A stretch of 15,474 nucleotides of DNA. Origin: a virus. Location of the stretch: UHGV virus genome UHGV-0168751; one strand, given 5' to 3'. Both the position numbers and the translations under genes were made by a program. The notes beneath the pieces are model-generated. The model was not told the DNA's origin, searched no databases, and worked only from the letters and a program-made list of their open reading frames with translations. Of this stretch, positions 1,914 to 15,315 are shown in pieces. The first letter of the stretch is position 1. Every line of letters begins with the position of its first letter.

Positions 1914-3215
1914 TTACGTAATGTGGATCAATGGATTAAATTCGTGTACCACAGTCTCTTTACCGTGCATCGCGGCCATTGCCACGGACATAACGTTAGA
2001 GAACGCCGAGGAAATATCCGCAGCGATTGCGCGAGGTTCTTCCCCTTTATTCGCAGACGCGCACGCTGTGCAGCAGTCGATGTGGCCGTATTGACATAAG
2101 ATGGGTCGGCGTAATCGTACCACTTTACCTAACTGTTGCTTTAAATATTCCTCAGTCAGTGGTGTTAATTTACCATTCACCATCGCGTTCATTCCAACGT
2201 AACGCTTCACGTTATCCTCGGTAATCACAACCGGGTACGTTAATTTCGTTCCGCAGTCGCCAGGAACAATTCGATGGTTCTGGAAAATCATCTGGATGAT
2301 ACGTACCTGTTCACCCCCTTTCGCGGTTTCCGCACCACGAGAGAATGAACCCTCGCGAATAGAGTTGAATTTCGCGACCAGGTTTTCCATCCCTGCCTTA
2401 TCCACCTCAACCAGCGCGTTCGGAATGAGCGTGTAATGCCCACCTTCCTGGAAAGATGATTCAATACCATACATCAACATTAGCTTACGTCGACGCATCC
2501 GTGATTTCGGCGAGTTATAGAATTCAATAGATTGGTCTCCCGACAACCATTCTTTATCGAGTTCATCCAACGCCTTTTCAATCTTAACAATAACCGCAGG
2601 ATCGTCTAACTCGTCTTTGTGCTTCAACAATAACGCATCACGGATTTTATACGCATCAGGATGCACTGTAAGGCTTCGTAACGTACCCGTTGGTGCAATA
2701 CCTGACGTAAGCGGTGCAAGTTCGTGTAAGCCACTTACAAAGCGCTCAATCATGCTCGGACGAATCGCACCTTCGTTTTCCGGCTCATCGGTTTCGTGGT
2801 CTAAACAACGACGATGCATCTCTTTGCGATATTCCAACGGGTTTTGTGAAATCGCCAGATACGGTAAGCGCGTACCGAATGCGTACCAGATAACAATCCA
2901 GTTAAAGATATAACGTCCTACGGTAGTAGGAATCGGTCCTTCTAATCCTGGGTAGTCATCCACCTTCAGCTCGAACTGTTCTTCGGGAATAAACAGTTCT
3001 TGGTCTTTTACGCCGTCAGTAATCGGTTCCCAACTACCCTTGCCATCTTCTACAGCGTAGTAATGCGGCAAACCGTCAATATACGTAATATCAAACGCTT
3101 CGGGTTCTTCACGCCCCGTTGGAAACACCGACATGTTAAAGATAGCAATACGCCAGACCAGGCGACGCCATGCTTCGGCTTTACACGCAGCCACTAAGAA
3201 CTCAAATCTCGTCAT
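1914..3215 (-). CDS. Hypothetical protein (about 433 aa from ATG at 3213..3215; track ORF begins at a TTG at 3233)
   Basis: Long open frame; strong SD GAGGAGG (revcomp of 3224..3230) sits 9 nt upstream of the ATG at 3213..3215, which would lie inside the coding region if the TTG start were used. Overlaps the upstream gene stop by 14 nt. Confidence 0.6.
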   Translation of the reverse strand: MTRFEFLVAACKAEAWRRLVWRIAIFNMSVFPTGREEPEAFDITYIDGLPHYYAVEDGKGSWEPITDGVKDQELFIPEEQFELKVDDYPGLEGPIPTTVGRYIFNWIVIWYAFGTRLPYLAISQNPLEYRKEMHRRCLDHETDEPENEGAIRPSMIERFVSGLHELAPLTSGIAPTGTLRSLTVHPDAYKIRDALLLKHKDELDDPAVIVKIEKALDELDKEWLSGDQSIEFYNSPKSRMRRRKLMLMYGIESSFQEGGHYTLIPNALVEVDKAGMENLVAKFNSIREGSFSRGAETAKGGEQVRIIQMIFQNHRIVPGDCGTKLTYPVVITEDNVKRYVGMNAMVNGKLTPLTEEYLKQQLGKVVRLRRPILCQYGHIDCCTACASANKGEEPRAIAADISSAFSNVMSVAMAAMHGKETVVHEFNPLIHIT

Positions 3216-4056
3216 CGTGTTCTGCCTCCTCAACCTGATAAATCACCCGTAGACTTTTTAAAGCAGGTTGTAGAACAGTGATAGGTTGTAACCCATCATT
3301 ATTAAGTTTCTCTAAGTTCGTCGAAAGATCGGCATACGCATCGTCGAAGTCATCGTTATCGATAATCGATAGCCCTACCGTATACATCTCGAGCAATTCC
3401 GTTTCGCTGTAATCCTCAACATCAAACACCAACGATTGTTGGACAACGGTCAAGTCAGGATCTTCGGGTAAGTTTAAGAATACGAACGCAGAGGGGTTTT
3501 GTGGATAAAGTCGTAAATATTCTGCGATACGTGACAGTCGCGCGTCGTTACCTGTCGAGAGTTGTTCATCCACAGCCATTGCTGAGAGGTAGTTACGCAT
3601 TACTGTCATCACACGAGGAGAAACACGAATGACCAAATCTTCAAAATGGATATTATCGTCACCGTATACATAACGGCACATGCTTTCCAGGATATACTCT
3701 GGTGTTTCACCAGACATCACCAGACCGTATAACGTGTCGGTGTCTTCGAACTCTTCGAACTTAGACGTTATACCGTCCAGAATACGTACTGTCTCTTTCG
3801 GCTTACGGAAGACTTCTTGTGGGTTTAAAGCGACGCCTAAACGGTTACCTAATGCTACAGCGCTTTTTACAATAATCCCTTCCAGTCTTACAGTTTCGTC
3901 CGCAGGATCAGATGACGGTTGCCAATACACATCGCTTAACGCAACATCGTAACCGTAATCCATGCACAACGTCACTAAATCCAGGAAAGGCGCAGCACGT
4001 TCTTCCGCACGATTGACGGTAAGAACGGCAGCGTAATCGGTATAAATGTCAATCAT
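3202..4056 (-). CDS. Hypothetical protein with acidic C-terminus (about 284 aa from ATG at 4054..4056; track ORF begins at TTG 4068)
   Basis: Long open frame directly downstream (minus sense) of the 4091..4133 terminator; only a weak SD-like GGAAAAGG before the ATG; start choice is uncertain. Confidence 0.55.
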   Translation of the reverse strand: MIDIYTDYAAVLTVNRAEERAAPFLDLVTLCMDYGYDVALSDVYWQPSSDPADETVRLEGIIVKSAVALGNRLGVALNPQEVFRKPKETVRILDGITSKFEEFEDTDTLYGLVMSGETPEYILESMCRYVYGDDNIHFEDLVIRVSPRVMTVMRNYLSAMAVDEQLSTGNDARLSRIAEYLRLYPQNPSAFVFLNLPEDPDLTVVQQSLVFDVEDYSETELLEMYTVGLSIIDNDDFDDAYADLSTNLEKLNNDGLQPITVLQPALKSLRVIYQVEEAEHDDEI

Positions 4057-4090
4057 AGCCTTTTCCAATACAAGGGGTTCATACCAAAGC

Positions 4091-7154: not shown

Positions 7155-7538
7155 TTAACCGTTATCGTGAGGAACGGTTACCCAGCTGTGCCATTTCTCG
7201 GAGTATAACCGATAAGCCACTTTCGGGTTTTGGTCTACACTCCCTGCGGGGTTTTCAACCCACAGCACCCAGCTATACAGCTCGTAAGACGACGTATTAC
7301 GAATACTGGAGTTACGTGTGATGTAATAACATTTACCTCGTTGAAAAATCTGCATTCCTGCGTAGTGTTCATTCACCATGTAATAGTGAAACGCAACGCT
7401 CATCACAGGATCGGTGCAGAGTTTATTTACGACGTCTAAAACGTCGGGATACGCCTTTAAAACTTTTTCGAGAAAACTTGCTAAGTTCAGACCGGCATAC
7501 GGCGCGGTTGGCTCTGTTGGCTGCGGCGGTAGTAACAT
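7155..7538 (-). CDS. Hypothetical protein (127 aa)
   Basis: ATG at 7536..7538 with strong SD AAGGAAAG; start lies 116 nt inside the 3' end of the helicase gene in a different frame. Confidence 0.55.
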   Translation of the reverse strand: MLLPPQPTEPTAPYAGLNLASFLEKVLKAYPDVLDVVNKLCTDPVMSVAFHYYMVNEHYAGMQIFQRGKCYYITRNSSIRNTSSYELYSWVLWVENPAGSVDQNPKVAYRLYSEKWHSWVTVPHDNG

Positions 7539-9132
7539 CGGCTTTCCTTACAATATACGGTGAGGTGGCTATCTTAAACGACAACACAGAATCACTCAGT
7601 GACTTTTGACGCGCATTCAAGTAATTGCAGTGTTTCGGTATCGAGTAAGAATGGAATAACCACACAACGGGATCGAGTTCACCCCAATCGTTGTGGAGAA
7701 TCTTACGTGGGCGTCCGGCCATCTGGCGGTTTAACTGTTGGTCTTCCACAGGGGTGGTAATGTACATGTGAACCAACCCCGGTTTGTCAACCGCAGTACC
7801 CGCTTTCCCTGGTGTTGAAATAGAGAAATCCGCTTGAATAAAGTCGTCATACGAATCCCCTGCGTTATATTTCGCAACCATTAATGCATGGAACTTATCA
7901 GACTGTGCAAGTTTCTCTCGCACATATTCCGTAAAGAATTCACACATCGCAACTGTTGCAAACAACACCAATACTTTCTGACCAGGTTGATAACCTGCCA
8001 GATACGTCCGTTCTATCACGTCCCAGACCATATCCGCGTACGACTGATGAAGGTTTTCGCTAATCAACTTCCCTTCAAACAGTTTGTGGTTATACGGGGT
8101 CATCTTCGTTGCCCACCACGCAAACCGCTTATTTTCAATTCTGTAATACAACGCTTTCACATGTACCGCAGGAATAATCGGAATGGTGATACGTGCCTCT
8201 TGTGGGAAACGTTCTTTATACCGTTCTGCCAAGAATGCTTTTGATTCGCCCGGTTGGAGTGTGGCCGACATTTCGACAGAAGGTGGCGGATTCAACATAA
8301 TTCCAGCCATGTACACCAAGTGGAAATGTTCGTGCACTTCGTCCATCGATAAAAACCCGACACCTAACGTGTTATAGAAATCATCGATGTTCACTGGATT
8401 AGTCGCAGCAGTATTGATATACTCTTTCAAAAACCGCTGTAACGTCACCGTAGAGACGATAATCACTTTGATGCCACGTTTATCCAGCTCACCACTTTCA
8501 CCCATTTCTAGCGCTTCGTAGACCGCTTGTACGCCCTGTATAACCAGGACGTCTTCTTTCGATTCACGAAGGCCAGTAGGATCTTCCGTTAAGTCGAATA
8601 ACCACTTGGAAATATATGTGGGCCGATGAATCAATAACGTTCTTACCCCTTTACGAACCATCACCTTCATGTTGGTTTTCGACTTACCCATACCGGTGCC
8701 GATTTCAAAGATGGTTTGTAAACGGTTCGGCTGACAGGCCGTTTCGACAACCCCATTCTGATAAAAGAAACGTGACGACTCATCCTCTTCTATCATGTTA
8801 AAACCGTAGTTTTCAAACGTACAACGGTAAGGGGTTCCTTGGGTTAAGTGATGCTCGTAAAGTTTGAAGTCAATTGCAAACTCAGCAGCCGTTCGGTTAA
8901 TAATGATTCGTAAACGTTCGGAAAAATTCCGGTGGAATATAAAAGTACGGATAGAAGGAATATGCGCGTAATACGGATCACCACGTTCGGTAATAATTCT
9001 TCCGTATTGCTTGCCCATTTTCGGGGCGTGCATATTCTCTTCTGCCCACTTTAAGATTGCCGACTCTATAGGTCGGCAAGGGACTTCGACCCTCACGCCC
9101 ATACTCGTAAAGGTCATGTGGAATTCGTACAT
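7423..9132 (-). CDS. Superfamily 2 DExH-box helicase/ATPase (569 aa), nucleic-acid substrate unknown
   Basis: Motif I GTGMGKSKT, motif II DEVH, motif III SAT, motif IV-like VLVLFATV, motif V-like STPGKAGTAVD, motif VI QMAGRPR, in canonical order and spacing (core about 7693..8715). ATG at 9130..9132 with strong SD AAGAGGGGAG. Basic C-terminal tail RRFRRRK. Confidence 0.8.
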   Translation of the reverse strand: MYEFHMTFTSMGVRVEVPCRPIESAILKWAEENMHAPKMGKQYGRIITERGDPYYAHIPSIRTFIFHRNFSERLRIIINRTAAEFAIDFKLYEHHLTQGTPYRCTFENYGFNMIEEDESSRFFYQNGVVETACQPNRLQTIFEIGTGMGKSKTNMKVMVRKGVRTLLIHRPTYISKWLFDLTEDPTGLRESKEDVLVIQGVQAVYEALEMGESGELDKRGIKVIIVSTVTLQRFLKEYINTAATNPVNIDDFYNTLGVGFLSMDEVHEHFHLVYMAGIMLNPPPSVEMSATLQPGESKAFLAERYKERFPQEARITIPIIPAVHVKALYYRIENKRFAWWATKMTPYNHKLFEGKLISENLHQSYADMVWDVIERTYLAGYQPGQKVLVLFATVAMCEFFTEYVREKLAQSDKFHALMVAKYNAGDSYDDFIQADFSISTPGKAGTAVDKPGLVHMYITTPVEDQQLNRQMAGRPRKILHNDWGELDPVVWLFHSYSIPKHCNYLNARQKSLSDSVLSFKIATSPYIVRKADVTTAAANRANRAVCRSELSKFSRKSFKGVSRRFRRRK

Positions 9133-9143
9133 GCTCCCCTCTT

Positions 9144-9171
9144 ACAAAAAAAGAGGGGCGCAGGCCCCTCT
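9144..9171 (-). terminator. Intrinsic terminator (minus-strand sense) between the beta-prime-like gene and the helicase gene
   Basis: GC-rich stem gaggggc/gcccctc (9153..9159 and 9164..9170, extendable by one A-T pair), 4-nt loop, followed in the minus sense by TTTTTTT (plus-strand A-run 9146..9152). Confidence 0.7.
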
Positions 9172-9174
9172 CGT

Positions 9175-11274
9175 TTACTCAATGATAGTCGCGGCCACCG
9201 TATTGTCGTATAACGACGCCGGACGTTTACGTGACGTATAGAAACGCACGTTGTCCAGGTTTTTCTGTTGGCCTTCGAATAACAACATCGGTACAGCTGA
9301 ACGTATCGCAATCAACGTGTTGTGATCTTCGAAACGTTTACCGTCCATGATATCTGCGTCTTCGCTATCAAACCCAACTGCCGGGAAAGGATTGGTTGGT
9401 GACTCAACGCGAGATATCGCCAGCATAATCGCGATGTGTGTCATCGGAATACCACCGAGCTTACGCTGAATATACTTAAACACATCAAACAACGCATGTG
9501 TACATTGTTTTTCCGTAGCACCGCGCATCTGAACCAGTGTTGTGGGTTTTACTTTACCCGACTTCTTGCTCAAACGCATTGAGTCATCCGAGAACTGTTC
9601 GAAAGTATCCGATTTATCAGAAGCAACCGAACGAAGTTTCAATTCTAACCCTGCTACGAACTCCGCCATAGATTCAGACCGATTCGTATAAATTAGTATC
9701 GGCCAACTCGGTTTCCAGCCTTTCAGTGGAATCCGTACCAGTTTCTTCGACGGGAACGTAATGTTATCACGCTGCTTCAGGAAGAAATGCAAGAAGGCTT
9801 TCGAGAAGTTACCACAAACCCCCATACGGACGTCGATGGGATCTTCAGCCAGTACATTCCCGGCTTCATCCATCCGCAAAAAGGTCAGTTCGTTAATCTC
9901 CGGCAACGCCGTTTCGTCAATCACTTCCAAATCGTCATGGTACGCGATTTGGCTGATTTCAGAATAGACTTCATCGGAAATAACGAGTTGGTATTCATCC
10001 CAATTACCGTACTGCGGTTTCTCTCGTAAACTTAGACCTTTTACAGAGTTGTGTTTATACTCCCCAAGATAATCCCGCATTCTTGGGGTCAGTACCAGAT
10101 TCAACAGATAGCGCAAGAAGTCTAAATGTTTCGTTGAGAGAATCCCCTGGGTACCCTTTTCAGATATCGAGGTTGAGGCCAAGTGACCTGGTGACGTTCC
10201 CGGCGAAAGGTTATAAATCAAATCACCCATGCAGGTTGCACAAATGCTTTGACGCGCCATCCCCTTACAACACATCGCAGTACGGAACTCAATAGGTTTG
10301 CCTAAGACTTTCTCAAACTCCCCTTTCTCGAATCGTAGCCACGGACCTCCCATGCCTTCAAAACGATAACGCATTCCCACCATCGCATCGTACTTCTTAC
10401 GCTCCAGTTTACTTTCTGTAAACGTGTGGCGATGAACGTGATGCGTACCACAATCGTCGTATTCGAAATACATTAACACGTTGGCTGCTAACTGTAGCTT
10501 ACGTGACGCGTATTCCGCATCGGCGATTTTATCGGTATTATAAAGATGAGAACGTGACGTTGCCCCGGCTTCCTTCAGGCGGCTAATTACGGAATGCAGA
10601 CCCGTAAAGAAACCTTCCCATACCTGGTTAGAATAAACGCGGGAATCAATCTCGGATGTTTTCCCACGTATATACGCCTGAAGAACCTGGTTCATTTTGA
10701 TGGTCTTATCCAAGACCGACATCACCACAGGGTTTAAACGAAGTTGTGGGTCTTTGAAGATATCCTCGATAAGAAGATATGCTTCCTCAACCATATCACG
10801 ACCTTCTTCGTCGTACCCAGTAGGATACATTTGTGCCCACTGATGAATCTGCGTAAAGTTTCGGTGTTGGTAAATTTCCATCATCGTATCGTAGTCAATC
10901 GTGACGCAATACGACAACAGATTTTTCACCGACAAGTTAAACGCATCCGCATAAACGTGCTGCTGCAATAAGTAACGAGTGTCTGCTAAATCCACGCCCG
11001 CTTTACGTGCCGCCACAGCTGCCAATGACATAAACTTCAGATGTGCGTCATCTGTCGCGGTGTCACCATGTTTATACGCCATCTGTGAACTGATTGGGAT
11101 CTGCGGATAAAATCGTGTTAGACCCCAATAAGGCCAACTTATTTTAATGTGGCGTCCTGACATGTTTAAGGTTACCCCATCGTCGAACGTCACTTCATAT
11201 CTGCCGCGTAATAGCCACACCTGATCCGAGTTCAGTTTACACAAATCACGCACGTGAACTGGAGTGCCCTTCAT
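9175..11274 (-). CDS. Multisubunit RNA polymerase beta-prime-like protein, C-terminal module (699 aa)
   Basis: Trigger-loop-like segment ASTSISEKGTQGILSTKH (about 10120..10197) resembles the bacterial SIGEPGTQLTMRTFH; a weaker bridge-helix-like segment lies about 130 residues upstream, matching the bacterial spacing. No Asp-triad catalytic loop, so the N-terminal beta-prime module is not here. ATG overlaps the upstream stop (TAATG). By-eye similarity only. Confidence 0.6.
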   Translation of the reverse strand: MKGTPVHVRDLCKLNSDQVWLLRGRYEVTFDDGVTLNMSGRHIKISWPYWGLTRFYPQIPISSQMAYKHGDTATDDAHLKFMSLAAVAARKAGVDLADTRYLLQQHVYADAFNLSVKNLLSYCVTIDYDTMMEIYQHRNFTQIHQWAQMYPTGYDEEGRDMVEEAYLLIEDIFKDPQLRLNPVVMSVLDKTIKMNQVLQAYIRGKTSEIDSRVYSNQVWEGFFTGLHSVISRLKEAGATSRSHLYNTDKIADAEYASRKLQLAANVLMYFEYDDCGTHHVHRHTFTESKLERKKYDAMVGMRYRFEGMGGPWLRFEKGEFEKVLGKPIEFRTAMCCKGMARQSICATCMGDLIYNLSPGTSPGHLASTSISEKGTQGILSTKHLDFLRYLLNLVLTPRMRDYLGEYKHNSVKGLSLREKPQYGNWDEYQLVISDEVYSEISQIAYHDDLEVIDETALPEINELTFLRMDEAGNVLAEDPIDVRMGVCGNFSKAFLHFFLKQRDNITFPSKKLVRIPLKGWKPSWPILIYTNRSESMAEFVAGLELKLRSVASDKSDTFEQFSDDSMRLSKKSGKVKPTTLVQMRGATEKQCTHALFDVFKYIQRKLGGIPMTHIAIMLAISRVESPTNPFPAVGFDSEDADIMDGKRFEDHNTLIAIRSAVPMLLFEGQQKNLDNVRFYTSRKRPASLYDNTVAATIIE

Positions 11275-13511
11275 TATTCATCGCCCCTTTTCATTTTCAC
11301 CAATTCAAACCCTTCGCAGTTGTGGATGTTTTTCATCATCCTGTCAATCTGTGAATCCCCTAACGGGAATTTATTCCGGTCTACCAGCGGACCCGGATTA
11401 GACGGGGTTTGAGATCGATAAAGCCCTACTAAAATCTCACGATGCACCGCAGGGTTGTTTGCCCTATCGTGAACTTCTTCGTAGTTACCTGGACCATAAC
11501 CCGCTAACAGTCGTTCTTCCGAAGGACCAGCCCATTTTAGCGTTTTATAGTTTATCGGATACGAACCACGGCCTTGGTTAGACGCGTCTATCGTGCCCAG
11601 ATAGTTCAGGTACATTGACGAGATACTGGAAAACTCACGGCCTGTTTTATCCAGACGTAATGTTTCCACACCGCCCACGTAAAACTCGTCTTTTGTCCAT
11701 TCCTGTTTACCGTCGAAATTAGTAATCAGGAGTTTGGATTTACGCGGTTTAAATTCACCTAACCGTTCGCTGATATCGACAGGTGTGTCATCCAGCTCAT
11801 GCGGCAAATAGATACGGATTGTAAAATCGTAAATCTCTTTAAAGAGTTCGCGTTGTAAATCCTCCGTAGGATGCGTTACCTGTAGTGTATTGGCCCAATC
11901 AGGATTATAACGTGACAGATAATCCATCAGGATTTCCCAGCTCTCACTGATACGCCCTTCATCCAGCATTGGTTTAAGACGCATCTTCAGCTGCTCAGAC
12001 GCCGCTGACCAATACATGTGGAACAGTGCTGCATAAGTCGAACGACGAATTACAGCGTTCATCGAACGTAAAACATGAACACGTTCACCGAATTCGTTAA
12101 TCGGCATCTGTTCAACGGGTAATACACGTCCAACAATCCCTTTCGTACCCGAACGGTCAGTAATCTTAGACGATACCGTTACCGGGATCGGATAACGAAC
12201 CGCAATACGAATAGTATACGTATTGATGGGATCGCTGAGTCCACGTTGTACTGGTGAGGTCAACTTAGAAAGAATCTGTTGGCTAACATTTTCTTTACCG
12301 TATTCACCACGACGAATGGCTTCATCAATCACCACGCGAATCTCTTCACGAAATTCGTGATAGACTTCGTAGGTTTCAGATGCAAACGCTTTTTCCAACA
12401 ACACACACGCTTTCGGTGACCAGATAATATTTTTGTCACGAGACATCGAGAAATAGAATCGCACAATGGCATTGTAATAATCTTTCAATGCTAATGCGTA
12501 TTTATCTAACTCTCGTTTGTTCTCTTCAGTACAAGAAATATTGTTAGTCCCATTCGCACAGGACGTTTCATCGCGCCACACCTGAATGTCCACGATACGT
12601 GTACCGCTACGCTCCATCAGTTCTTTGTCACCTGCCAGCCGCGCTTTATAATGGACGGGATCGGCATCCACATATTCGCAACTATCAAAGAACGGTGAAA
12701 CGTGTTGGGTTTCCCCAAGCGTCGCATCAATCGCAGCGTAAAGTTCATCGAAACGACGTGATGCAATAACCAACCCGTCATCACGAATAGCTTCGCCCAC
12801 ATCCGGGAAATAACGAGGAACGCGATTACCGTTCGGATCGTTATACCCATAGGTGTCTAACAGAAACTCATCTTCACGCAACGTTTTCTCGATGATTTTC
12901 AATCCATACCCGTGAAGCTTTTGTGCGGCGTATTCAGAAATGGTGTAGGAATCCTCGATAATGTCAGGATGCGAAATCGTAACGGTGGGTAGCACTACGC
13001 TGTCAGCGTATTCTCCTTCTACCATGCACGGCATCGTTGTAAGGATTTCATCTTTTTCCAACTGATCGGTTTCACCACGCAAAATACTGCGCAGTTTCAT
13101 CGATTCATGTTTCTCAGATGAGAAGATGTTGTCGTGATTGGTATAGAAGTTAATCTCCAACACGTCTATCATGGTTTTACCGCCTTTCATTTCTGCGCGG
13201 CGGAAGAAGATAGCGTGCTCCAGTGCTTTAGAATCCCCACGGCGTCCATAACGTGTAAACGTTGCACGACGCTGACGACCGTCTTTGGTCATATAGTGAC
13301 AGATGCTACCGGGATCTTCTACAACGTCGTTGAACAGAAAATCGTGGTAGTTTATATCTGCCCCTGTAAAATGTGGTGATGGTTCAGGATTGTCAATGGG
13401 GACCGCAGACTTCATATGGTTGCCTACCATCGATGCCCTTGCACCGGATACTTCGGTGATGTTAATCTCACGGTCAGCTACACTGCTCATTAGCTCTACT
13501 GGCGTTTTCAT
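11274..13511 (-). CDS. Multisubunit RNA polymerase beta-like protein, C-terminal module (745 aa)
   Basis: Residues 451-490 DRSGTKGIVGRVLPVEQMPINEFGERVHVLRSM (about 12042..12161) align with the conserved beta segment [33 protein letters not shown]; the C-terminal KWAGPSEERLLAGYG resembles beta EVWALEAYGA. Motif position implies only the C-terminal roughly 740 residues of a beta subunit. ATG at 13509..13511 with AAGGAG SD. Confidence 0.75.
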   Translation of the reverse strand: MKTPVELMSSVADREINITEVSGARASMVGNHMKSAVPIDNPEPSPHFTGADINYHDFLFNDVVEDPGSICHYMTKDGRQRRATFTRYGRRGDSKALEHAIFFRRAEMKGGKTMIDVLEINFYTNHDNIFSSEKHESMKLRSILRGETDQLEKDEILTTMPCMVEGEYADSVVLPTVTISHPDIIEDSYTISEYAAQKLHGYGLKIIEKTLREDEFLLDTYGYNDPNGNRVPRYFPDVGEAIRDDGLVIASRRFDELYAAIDATLGETQHVSPFFDSCEYVDADPVHYKARLAGDKELMERSGTRIVDIQVWRDETSCANGTNNISCTEENKRELDKYALALKDYYNAIVRFYFSMSRDKNIIWSPKACVLLEKAFASETYEVYHEFREEIRVVIDEAIRRGEYGKENVSQQILSKLTSPVQRGLSDPINTYTIRIAVRYPIPVTVSSKITDRSGTKGIVGRVLPVEQMPINEFGERVHVLRSMNAVIRRSTYAALFHMYWSAASEQLKMRLKPMLDEGRISESWEILMDYLSRYNPDWANTLQVTHPTEDLQRELFKEIYDFTIRIYLPHELDDTPVDISERLGEFKPRKSKLLITNFDGKQEWTKDEFYVGGVETLRLDKTGREFSSISSMYLNYLGTIDASNQGRGSYPINYKTLKWAGPSEERLLAGYGPGNYEEVHDRANNPAVHREILVGLYRSQTPSNPGPLVDRNKFPLGDSQIDRMMKNIHNCEGFELVKMKRGDE

Positions 13512-13574
13512 TTTAATGCTCCTTTAGGTTGATTCGGTAGGATAATATCTATCTCACTTATTTTAGGAACGATT

Positions 13575-13898
13575 ATGTTAGACAATTTTATTACCCTAGA
13601 AGAATTCATACCTGCGCCTTACACCACGACGTGGAAAGTGATGCACGATTACACAGACTATCTGCGTAAACACCCGAAAACTAAAATAGAAAATGTTGAC
13701 CCACGCTACAGCTGGCCTGAAGTCCACAATTTCTACGCCTACTGTAAACTCAAAGGTTACGCCGATATCATTATCTATCCGATGATGCTATTAAACGGGC
13801 TAGAAGACCCCATGAATTTCACCCCTGAAATCACGCAGCTGATCGTTCCCGACGTCGGGACGGTCAGTGAGATTATTAGCACCATCGGCGACTATTAA
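13575..13898 (+). CDS. Hypothetical protein (107 aa), the only internal plus-strand gene
   Basis: ATG at 13575 with AGGAA SD; ends at TAA just before the 13902..13930 hairpin. Divergent from the beta-like gene and convergent with the 459-aa gene. Confidence 0.5.
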   Translation: MLDNFITLEEFIPAPYTTTWKVMHDYTDYLRKHPKTKIENVDPRYSWPEVHNFYAYCKLKGYADIIIYPMMLLNGLEDPMNFTPEITQLIVPDVGTVSEIISTIGDY

Positions 13899-13901
13899 AA
13901 A

Positions 13902-13930
13902 AAGAAGGGACCGTGTCCCTTCTTTTATAT
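13902..13930. terminator. Bidirectional intrinsic terminator between convergent genes
   Basis: Stem aagaagggac/gtcccttctt (13902..13911 and 13915..13924) with a short loop, flanked by an A-run upstream and a T-rich run downstream on the plus strand. Confidence 0.65.
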
Positions 13931-13935
13931 TTCAC

Positions 13936-15315
13936 TTAACGCGTAAACGCTGAAGTTGCAATTCCACCGAAGCTGTTTTGGGATTGTCCACCAAAACTGT
14001 TGTTCGTTGCAAATGCTGAACTTGTGCTAAACGCGCTAGTACCCCCTACATTCCCGCCAAAGGAATTACTTCCTCCACCAAAGGTACTTGCCAAAGAACC
14101 CCCGGTATTTCCCCCACCGAAATTACCCTGGCCTCCGAATGGGGACATCTTACGCTCACCACCAAACGCATCCACAACAGAGATTCGACTTACCATACCG
14201 TTGGCAGGGTTGGTCGTGCCGTGTTGTTCAGCGTAGCGTTGCATCGCCGGTGTCAAATTCCCATAGGGACTATGTGCGGCCATGCTACGCTCACGGGCGC
14301 GGAAGAATTCCATCGGATCAGACTTATCTGCCTTATCTGCGTCCGATGCACGTTTCTGCGGGATCTGCTGCGGAGCCTGCTCACGATCAATACGGAAATC
14401 ATGCGCTGTGGTATCCCGTTCAGGACTGTCAGAGCGTGGACCAGTGTTATACGGTAAGGTCTGAATGACGTTATCGTAAATTTCCATATTGTCCAGCTGA
14501 GAAATCCATTCATCTTCTAACGGTCGTAATGGGGAATGGTCACGCAACCCTTTAACGACGTTGTTATAGTTTACAACGTACTGTGCCCAACCGCGTGCTA
14601 AACAACCGAAGTACGGACGAGAATCATTAGACCCTGTTACACTCGGATACCAACCAAATACGGTGGTCAGTAAACGATGAATAATGATTTTGTCCTGCTT
14701 ACGTTGAAGTTTCGCAGAGAAGTACATTGCAGTACCATCTAACGATTCTTCTTCAAACATATTTCGATAATTGGCAACACGGTTAAATTTCACACCGTCA
14801 ATAACTAAATCGGATGCGATAAAGAGCTGAGTAATCTTGTGCTTTTTATCCTTTTCCAGTTGGGCGTAGACAAATGCTTTAACCGCTTCCCAGGATTTCA
14901 CCAAACGTTCGTCAAACGTCGGATCTTTCATCCCTTCACAAATCTGTTCTGTTAAGAACTTCTTGTAAGAAGCGGAACGTACCGCTTTGCCGCTTGCTCC
15001 GGTTTCCAAAATTGCATCGATTAGCGCAAACGAACGAATGAACAGGTTCGCATTGATGGATTTCTTCAGAAAACGAATTGTCCCAGATTCGCCTGCCAAT
15101 ACCGATTCGCATAACGGATGAAACGCCTGGCATTCACGACCATCATCGTCTTCCATGCCGCGCTTAATCATCGCTGGGGTAGGAAGCGCCAGACGGCGCT
15201 TCACTTTGTTATACGTAAACTCTGCCGGTTCACCACCGTCACGAGTAAGTAAATCGTTTTCGAAATCGTATCCTTGTGATTTAAGAAACGATTTGTAGAA
15301 TTCAATAATTTTCAT
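13936..15315 (-). CDS. Hypothetical protein (459 aa) with Gly/Ser/Phe-rich low-complexity C-terminal tail of repeated SFGG/FGGG units
   Basis: ATG at 15313..15315 with AAGGA SD 8 nt upstream; the last 76 residues (13939..14166) are a run of FGG-type repeats; terminator follows the stop. Confidence 0.7.
   Translation of the reverse strand: MKIIEFYKSFLKSQGYDFENDLLTRDGGEPAEFTYNKVKRRLALPTPAMIKRGMEDDDGRECQAFHPLCESVLAGESGTIRFLKKSINANLFIRSFALIDAILETGASGKAVRSASYKKFLTEQICEGMKDPTFDERLVKSWEAVKAFVYAQLEKDKKHKITQLFIASDLVIDGVKFNRVANYRNMFEEESLDGTAMYFSAKLQRKQDKIIIHRLLTTVFGWYPSVTGSNDSRPYFGCLARGWAQYVVNYNNVVKGLRDHSPLRPLEDEWISQLDNMEIYDNVIQTLPYNTGPRSDSPERDTTAHDFRIDREQAPQQIPQKRASDADKADKSDPMEFFRARERSMAAHSPYGNLTPAMQRYAEQHGTTNPANGMVSRISVVDAFGGERKMSPFGGQGNFGGGNTGGSLASTFGGGSNSFGGNVGGTSAFSTSSAFATNNSFGGQSQNSFGGIATSAFTR

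Follow-up and report, generated by a model that had tools for sequence, protein, structure and literature searches.

Two overlapping genes on the minus strand of the virus genome UHGV-0168751, at positions 9,175 to 13,511 of a stretch of 15,474 nucleotides (the whole of which is called the window here), raise the question of which RNA polymerase (RNAP) they belong to. The original prediction, made from the sequence alone, had described them as C-terminal modules of the beta and beta-prime subunits of a split, highly divergent phage multisubunit RNAP, and had allowed that they might represent an uncharacterised lineage. The analysis presented here leaves little room for doubt that the pair encodes two of the five subunits of the non-virion RNAP (nvRNAP) of the Chimalliviridae, the phiKZ-like, nucleus-forming jumbo phages; the pair would be organised as a bicistronic unit. 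The analysis itself shows homology, synteny, conserved catalytic residues and the predicted fold, and it shows that partner genes are present.

Identity of the two proteins

The list of open reading frames (ORFs) and a direct reading of the junction confirm two ORFs of 745 and 699 amino acids (aa), which meet in the sequence GAA TAA TG A, the last A of the stop codon being the first base of the next ATG (Table 1). The proteins can be identified by comparison with the solved structures of the phiKZ nvRNAP (PDB 7OGP, 7OGR, 8QUE and 9RJS). In a phmmer search of the PDB, the 745-aa protein matches chain 7OGP_C (PHIKZ071, gp71-73) with an E-value of 3.3e-30 over the stretches 21-356 and 427-737, followed by chain 7S00_C of the AR9 nvRNAP (1.3e-14) and, after the phage chains, by some 30 bacterial beta subunits, which match in a segment around residues 860-940. 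The 699-aa protein matches 7OGP_D (PHIKZ074, gp74) from residue 8 on (4.1e-32) and AR9 7S00_D (2.2e-4). Both also fall into established phage protein families in a PHROG search, the former in phrog_3295 (residues 1-744, E 2.6e-253) and the latter in phrog_3015 (E 2.9e-224), each of which carries the label "RNA polymerase beta subunit".

The predicted folds lead to the same enzymes. The AlphaFold2 model of the 745-aa protein, with a mean predicted local distance difference test (pLDDT) score of 79.4 and a predicted template modelling score (pTM) of 0.71, retrieves 8QUE_C, chain C of the phiKZ nvRNAP, as its top Foldseek match in the PDB (E 1.5e-40, TM 0.65/0.69), followed by the AR9 nvRNAP (5e-31) and bacterial beta chains (about 1e-23). 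The model of the 699-aa protein (pLDDT 81.1, pTM 0.64) retrieves 8QUE_D (3.2e-32), then 9RJS_D and 7OGP_D, and further down AR9 7S01_D (1e-17) and the beta-prime subunits of Thermus and Escherichia coli (about 5e-12). The Foldseek probability is 1.00 for the phiKZ, AR9 and bacterial matches of both models.

The connection to the cellular enzymes is also found by profile-to-sequence alignment. With hhalign, the family of the 745-aa protein aligns with residues 658-1236 of the 1342 of E. coli beta (probability 96.3, E 1.9e-9), and that of the 699-aa protein with residues 733-938 of the 1407 of E. coli beta-prime (probability 93.3, E 2.8e-7). Only C-terminal parts of the cellular subunits are thus represented, and the two proteins are shorter than these subunits, as the original prediction had stated. 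Its assignment to a split, divergent phage RNAP is borne out jointly by the PDB matches, the profile alignments and the predicted folds, which include the profile and structure comparisons that it had itself proposed.

Active-site elements

The phiKZ counterpart of the 745-aa protein, gp71-73, forms the C-terminal half of beta with motifs a10-a16, including the double-psi beta-barrel (PMC4666361). In the 745-aa protein, the two lysines of the motif SKITDRSGTKG, K449 and K457, correspond to K1065 and K1073 of E. coli beta and to K386 and K394 of phiKZ, and hhalign places this stretch against the E. coli segment GDKMAGRHGNKG. Across the 36 members of the family alignment, residues K449, D452, G455, K457 and G458 do not vary, and the model shows strands at 432-483. 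Sequence and model together thus indicate that the protein contains the beta-side double-psi beta-barrel with both active-site lysines.

phiKZ gp74 has been described as the carrier of the trigger helix/loop, together with the bridge helix and a Cys4 zinc site (PMC8287921), and the 699-aa protein shows the gp74 features bridge helix, Cys4 site and trigger loop in gp74 order. Its cysteines C275, C336, C345 and C348 correspond to the zinc-site residues C288, C341, C350 and C353 of phiKZ, while E372 to H383 correspond to E925 to H936 of beta-prime, so that the trigger-loop histidine is kept. Among the invariant columns of the 43 aligned family members are E254, R258, C275, C336, C345, C348, Q376, K382 and H383. 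The beta-signature, C-terminal, trigger-loop and bridge-helix motifs that had originally been quoted were all located in the two proteins. The stretches of low confidence in the 699-aa model lie at 241-244, the kink of the bridge helix, and at 383-393, the tip of the trigger loop, both of which are mobile in real enzymes.

Compared with bacterial RpoB and RpoC, the elements of the catalytic core align, including K1065/K1073, the bridge helix and the trigger-loop H936, yet identity is only about 14%, the trigger-loop R933 is replaced by S380 in the 699-aa protein, and the phage enzyme has two polypeptides where the bacterial one has a single one for each subunit. It also differs in having neither alpha nor omega and in the integral position of a sigma-like fifth subunit (PMC8287921). 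A degenerate or pseudogene status of the pair was considered and rejected: the ORFs are intact, the catalytic residues do not vary in the 36 and 43 aligned sequences, and many contigs carry identical copies.

Relatives, gene order and partner subunits

A tblastn search of phage genomes matched 273 records. The best relatives of the 745-aa protein are gp51 of Erwinia phage Asesino (77% identity) and the counterparts in phiEaH2 (76%) and Salmonella phage SPN3US (70.5%); for the 699-aa protein, identity to Asesino gp52 is 75%. At the DNA level, identity to Asesino is only 71.8% (blastn), which explains why megablast, with the 4.3-kb region as query, gave no match among 50,697 phage records; the relatives were reached by protein-level searches and blastn instead.

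Gene order agrees with these assignments. The window is collinear, on its minus strand, with Asesino gp49-gp61 and the matching block of SPN3US. In phiKZ the order runs from gp55 through the SbcD-like gp65 to gp68, gp69, gp70, gp71-73, gp74 and the helicase gp75, and on to gp79, gp80, gp81 and the DNA polymerase gp82, and its gp68-82 core agrees with the window. The 745-aa protein is accordingly the orthologue of phiKZ gp71-73, Asesino gp51 and SPN3US gp34 (gene count from gp35), and the 699-aa protein that of phiKZ gp74, Asesino gp52 and SPN3US gp35, the last of which is named by Thomas et al. as the model for nvRNAP beta-prime (PMC5105663).

With phiKZ the pair thus shares the subunit split at similar lengths (745 versus about 700 aa and 699 versus 677 aa), the lysines, bridge helix, Cys4 zinc site and trigger loop, the adjacency of the genes for the C-terminal portions of the beta and beta-prime subunits (beta-C and beta-prime-C) with the helicase gene following them, and a neighbourhood that includes gp68-, gp69- and gp70-like genes as well as a gene resembling gp80 of the virion RNAP (vRNAP). 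Yet identity to both window proteins is only about 20%, the phiKZ beta-C gene carries an intron with ORF72 whereas the window gene is continuous, and gp73 and gp74 are separated by a gap of 30 nt where the window phage has the TAATG overlap. SPN3US (Seoulvirus) and Asesino (Erskinevirus) are much closer, with 70-77% aa identity, an identical gene order over at least 15 kb, and the same 1-nt overlap, upstream 13-mer and downstream terminator. The window phage nevertheless belongs to a different species and probably to a different genus, as judged from the 71.8% DNA identity and the empty megablast search, and the contigs that carry its lineage measure 222-226 kb compared with 240-246 kb for SPN3US and Asesino. 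Bacillus phage AR9 (PDB 7S00 and 7S01) likewise has split beta and beta-prime subunits, which are detectable by sequence and fold but are far more distant. In AR9 the genes for the nvRNAP subunits are non-adjacent, the genome contains uracil, and promoters are recognised on the template strand.

The remaining subunits have to be sought beyond the window. A six-frame scan of the window for DxDxD and [NAS]AD[FY]DGD was empty, so the statement that it holds no Asp-triad loop was correct. The Asp-triad module simply lies beyond the window, on longer contigs of the same phage. The window corresponds to the ENA contig NODE_313_length_15474, and two longer contigs, L003 and L004, carry an identical copy of the neighbouring 459-aa gene. 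On L004, IKAPNADFDGDQLQ (NADFDGD) stands in a 535-aa ORF that lies about 9.5 kb upstream of the beta-C gene and matches phiKZ gp55 (7OGP_A) with an E-value of 2.1e-39; phiKZ gp55 carries the DFDGD motif (PMC8287921). Closer to the beta-C gene, about 3.5 kb upstream of it, both contigs have a 542-aa ORF that matches phiKZ gp68 (7OGP_B, E 5.4e-9), the sigma-like fifth subunit (PMC8287921). With these two genes nearby, four of the five nvRNAP genes stand within about 16 kb.

The gene for the N-terminal part of beta-prime (beta-prime-N) is itself interrupted on L003 (ENA ERZ28629076 scaffold_141), where a 350-nt group I intron without an ORF occupies positions 1497-1846, here too some 9.5 kb upstream of beta-C. 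It is recognised as Rfam RF00028 (56.6 bits against a gathering threshold of 50, E 6e-12) and splits the gene exactly at AAT GCT / GAT TTT GAT GGC GAC (NA|DFDGD), and joining the exons restores the 535-aa ORF. L004 lacks the intron and has GAC TTC beside the site in place of GAT TTT. In gene 55 of phiKZ, an intron with the HNH endonuclease gp56 interrupts the coding sequence no more than one codon away from this site (KAPN|ADFDGD). From these sequences, the group I intron in the NADFDGD codons appears to be polymorphic within the lineage. Within the window itself, Rfam detects no RNA family at the gathering threshold.

Complex formation, the timing of expression, promoter function and translational coupling would all follow the models available from the literature on phiKZ, AR9 and SPN3US. 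The 745-aa subunit would supply the beta-side double-psi beta-barrel, the two active-site lysines and the flap and clamp-anchor regions, and the 699-aa subunit the bridge helix, the Cys4 zinc site and the trigger loop. With the NADFDGD-bearing beta-prime-N, the N-terminal part of beta (beta-N) and the sigma-like fifth subunit as partners, they would form an RNAP without alpha or omega, which would transcribe the middle and late genes of the phage independently of the host enzyme.

Expression of the pair

Upstream of the first gene lies a block, CCTAAAATAA-N3-AGATAGATATTATCCTAC, which is essentially invariant between the window phage, Asesino and SPN3US, against an identity of only about 71% in the coding DNA. 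Its 13-mer core, GATAGATATTATC, recurs in all three phages at three syntenic sites on the same strand, namely upstream of the gp68-like gene, within the 3' part of that gene upstream of the gp69-like gene, and upstream of beta-C. The copies are exact save for one mismatch upstream of the gp68-like gene in the window phage, and an exact 13-mer would be expected by chance about 6e-4 times in 21 kb. In jumbo phages that encode RNAPs, the early operons carry at their -10 position a conserved AT-rich motif, about 10 nt long, which the virion RNAP recognises, and the nvRNAP genes are among the early genes that this enzyme transcribes (PMC7598289). The recurrence of the 13-mer, together with this literature, makes it most likely that the block is an early promoter for the virion RNAP. 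A scan for sigma-70 promoters found 6 sites, compared with 9.1 in shuffled controls, and thus provides no evidence for promoters of the host type.

At the other end, a hairpin that resembles an intrinsic terminator begins 2 nt past the stop codon of the 699-aa gene. Asesino and SPN3US keep the stem and the T-run, while the loop varies. The arrangement of these signals suggests that the two genes form a two-gene early transcription unit. The injected virion RNAP would transcribe the pair early, starting from the conserved AT-rich promoter that stands about 30-40 nt before the first ATG, and the bicistronic transcript would end at the hairpin and T-run directly past the 699-aa gene. At the junction, the sequence AATAATG is invariant in the window phage, Asesino and SPN3US, which makes translational coupling via TAATG plausible, and the 1-nt overlap of stop and start codons may favour coupled, near-equimolar translation of the two subunits.

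Weighing the alternatives

Several observations weigh against parts of this account. Pfam gives only a marginal match of RNA_pol_Rpb2_6 to the 745-aa protein (24.4 bits against a gathering threshold of 23.4, over 79 residues only), and RNA_pol_Rpb1_5 stays below its threshold on the 699-aa protein (15.8 versus 28.5 bits), so that the beta-prime assignment would remain unsupported if Pfam were used alone; homology to cellular RNAP is clear from the profile and fold comparisons despite these weak scores. The search for missing modules that had originally been proposed was successful for the Asp-triad subunit, but a gp123-like beta-N gene was not seen in the flanks of about 31 kb, the full 223-kb contigs not having been scanned. 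The phage itself has been met only as contigs in metagenomes and bacterial assemblies. As for expression, the hairpin with its T-run is no more than a candidate stop for the phage RNAPs; phiKZ has no overlap between gp73 and gp74; and a Shine-Dalgarno-like element precedes the second ATG, so that strict coupling is not required.

The last two points bear on the alternative that survives best, namely that the genes are co-transcribed but translated independently, the overlap being a by-product of genome compaction. With the GGGG of AAAGGGG (GGGAGGA in the relatives) 9 nt before the second ATG, independent initiation is also possible; the phiKZ orthologues stand 30 nt apart, and other genes of the window abut or overlap as well (3202-4068 with 1914-3233, and 7155-7538 with 7423-9132). 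Yet AATAATG is invariant across three lineages of genus level whose coding DNA is only about 70% identical, and both products are needed 1:1 in one complex (PMC8287921). Independent translation is a serious contender, if somewhat less likely than not.

A further-reaching proposal, which at present is rather unlikely, is that the invariant overlap serves the co-translational assembly of beta-C and beta-prime-C from one mRNA. Much of the active-site cleft is formed jointly by these two polypeptides. If the proposal were true, the adjacency of the genes would itself belong to the way in which the split polymerase, lacking the platform of an alpha dimer, is assembled. Separately, the shared GATAGATATTATC could serve as an early promoter of the virion RNAP in all three genera.

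As to the identity of the enzyme, the pair might alternatively encode subunits of the virion-packaged RNAP, which transcribes early genes. Both enzyme sets consist of split homologues of beta and beta-prime, and the PHROG and GenBank labels do not separate them. However, the best matches of the window proteins are the nvRNAP chains gp71-73 and gp74, nearly over their full length, and the synteny is that of phiKZ gp68-gp74. The vRNAP of SPN3US consists of gp240, gp241, gp218, gp42 and gp244, whereas gp35, the orthologue of the 699-aa protein, was named as nvRNAP (PMC5105663). Moreover, the window holds a separate fragment of vRNAP beta-prime (1914-3233, 74% identical to gp42), and the C-terminal part of vRNAP beta-prime is split further, into gp42 and gp244, where the pair has a single 699-aa protein. 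The SPN3US and phiKZ orthologues of both proteins have already been shown to be absent from virions. Orthology to the vRNAP subunits (phiKZ gp178, gp149, gp180 and gp80, and their SPN3US counterparts listed above) was also examined as such and rejected on the same best matches. A virion enzyme is hence very improbable, and the nvRNAP remains the preferred assignment.

Equally improbable is a new multisubunit RNAP lineage apart from the known jumbo-phage enzymes, which might be read from the empty megablast search, the NCBI copies labelled only 'hypothetical protein' and the identity of about 20% to phiKZ, but which is contradicted by aa identities of 77%, 75% and 70% with annotated orthologues of Asesino and SPN3US, both of them isolated phages (with 71.8% DNA identity), by full synteny with Asesino, SPN3US and phiKZ, by membership in the same PHROG families, and by the fit to the proposed genus 'Bapsvirus', which was described from bacterial assemblies (PMC12768965). 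As a separate type of RNAP, such a lineage stands refuted already.

Lineage and annotation

NCBI has the exact 745-aa sequence under the accession EIL5663609.1 ("hypothetical protein [Salmonella enterica]"), encoded on a contig of 223,321 nt. Its cluster at 90% identity has 245 members, which come from assemblies of Salmonella serovars, E. coli and Shigella and from metagenomes, on contigs of 222-226 kb (the distribution of the lineage is based on clusters P0001, P0087 and P0102). The proposed Chimalliviridae genus "Bapsvirus" was described from assemblies of Salmonella, E. coli and Shigella and comprises 247 genomes, which measure about 220-226 kb and are syntenic with Seoulvirus (PMC12768965). 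The window lineage fits this genus by its matching size, hosts and relatives, from which its membership is inferred. Its occurrence in isolate assemblies as contigs of 222-226 kb suggests a carrier-like state.

For Salmonella assemblies, the 699-aa gene is called in NCBI at 635 or 618 aa (P0103 and P0107), from the internal Met65 or Met82, again as a 'hypothetical protein'. Support for the full form comes from the alignment with phiKZ gp74 from residue 8 on, the invariant residues F30, D32, S46 and W50, and a pLDDT of about 90 over residues 1-70. Beta-prime-C is thus often called 64-81 codons too short because its overlapping start codon is missed.

The hedge that the pair may stand for an uncharacterised lineage has to be given up, in view of the 70-77% identity to annotated Asesino and SPN3US orthologues and of the already published phiKZ gp71-73/gp74 family. 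This type of RNAP is well known from structures, biochemistry and genetics, and the pair adds a member to it and not a new polymerase lineage; it opens no new biological question. Its value lies in annotation, since hundreds of assemblies of Salmonella, E. coli and Shigella contain identical or near-identical proteins under the label "hypothetical protein", and recognition of the nvRNAP subunits marks such contigs as nucleus-forming jumbo phages of the Chimalliviridae. The pair also adds a diverged set of sequences for comparative work on split RNAPs that lack alpha.

Table 1. Positions of the gene pair, its motifs and expression signals, and the third RNAP gene (window coordinates unless a protein or contig is named)
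Feature	Position	Strand	Remarks
Predicted nvRNAP beta C-terminal-half gene	11274..13511	-	745 aa, ATG start; ORF list
Predicted nvRNAP beta-prime C-terminal gene	9175..11274	-	699 aa, ATG start; ORF list
TAATG stop/start overlap	11276..11272	-	1 nt common to the 745-aa and 699-aa genes; direct reading
DRSGTKGIVGRVLPVEQMP	residues 452-470 of 745-aa protein		
WAGPSEERLLAGYG	residues 660-673 of 745-aa protein		
Bridge helix	about 229-264 of 699-aa protein		
GATSRSHLYNTDKIADAEYASRKLQLAANV	residues 237-266 of 699-aa protein		bridge-helix-like
Trigger loop	362-392 of 699-aa protein		
EKGTQGILSTKH	residues 372-383 of 699-aa protein		trigger-loop segment
Upstream block CCTAAAATAA-N3-AGATAGATATTATCCTAC, candidate early promoter	13537..13567	-	within the 63-bp region upstream of the 745-aa gene
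13-mer core GATAGATATTATC	13541-13553	-	within the upstream block
13-mer sites	L003 6564, 7975, 11763; L001 6717, 8133, 11956; L002 6798, 8214, 11957		
Shine-Dalgarno sequence TAAAGGAG	13519..13526	-	7 nt upstream of the 745-aa ATG; AAGGAG in relatives
Shine-Dalgarno-like AAAGGGG	11284-11290	-	GGGG 9 nt upstream of the second ATG; GGGAGGA in relatives
Intrinsic-terminator-like hairpin	9144..9172	-	9-bp stem, 6 GC pairs, 4-nt loop, T7; terminator scan
Virion-RNAP beta-prime middle fragment	1914..3233	-	439 aa; phrog_2962, E 4.5e-169; cross-match to phrog_3015

Other elements of the window

With the gene at 1914-3233, the window holds three RNAP genes where the original prediction had two. The 439-aa product has no sequence match in the PDB and was assigned through PHROG and SPN3US gp42, to which it is 74% identical; gp42 is a virion RNAP subunit by mass spectrometry (PMC5105663). 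Asesino gp59 is its orthologue, and phiKZ gp80 is positionally equivalent. Since the alignment with gp42 starts at residue 7, the true start of the gene is probably the ATG at codon 7, near 3215, and not the TTG at 3233. The neighbouring ORFs of 459, 568 and 652 aa have no PDB match by phmmer and thus cannot be assigned as RNAP subunits.

A 127-aa ORF at 7155-7538 on the minus strand shares 116 nt with the helicase gene (7423-9132), at the 3' end of the latter, and is 73% identical to SPN3US gp37 (gene number counted from gp35). In the SPN3US mutant 241(am11), gp37 is lost from virions along with the vRNAP subunits (PMC5105663), and the ORF may therefore encode a vRNAP-associated head protein.

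A second hairpin, AAGGGACACGGTCCCTT, is rich in GC and has a T-run after it on the minus strand; it occupies positions 13897-13925, between the 459-aa gene (13936-15315, minus strand) and a convergent 107-aa ORF (13575-13898, plus strand). By its sequence and position it looks like a bidirectional terminator. The small opposite-strand 107-aa ORF is kept in Asesino, as gp50, and in SPN3US.

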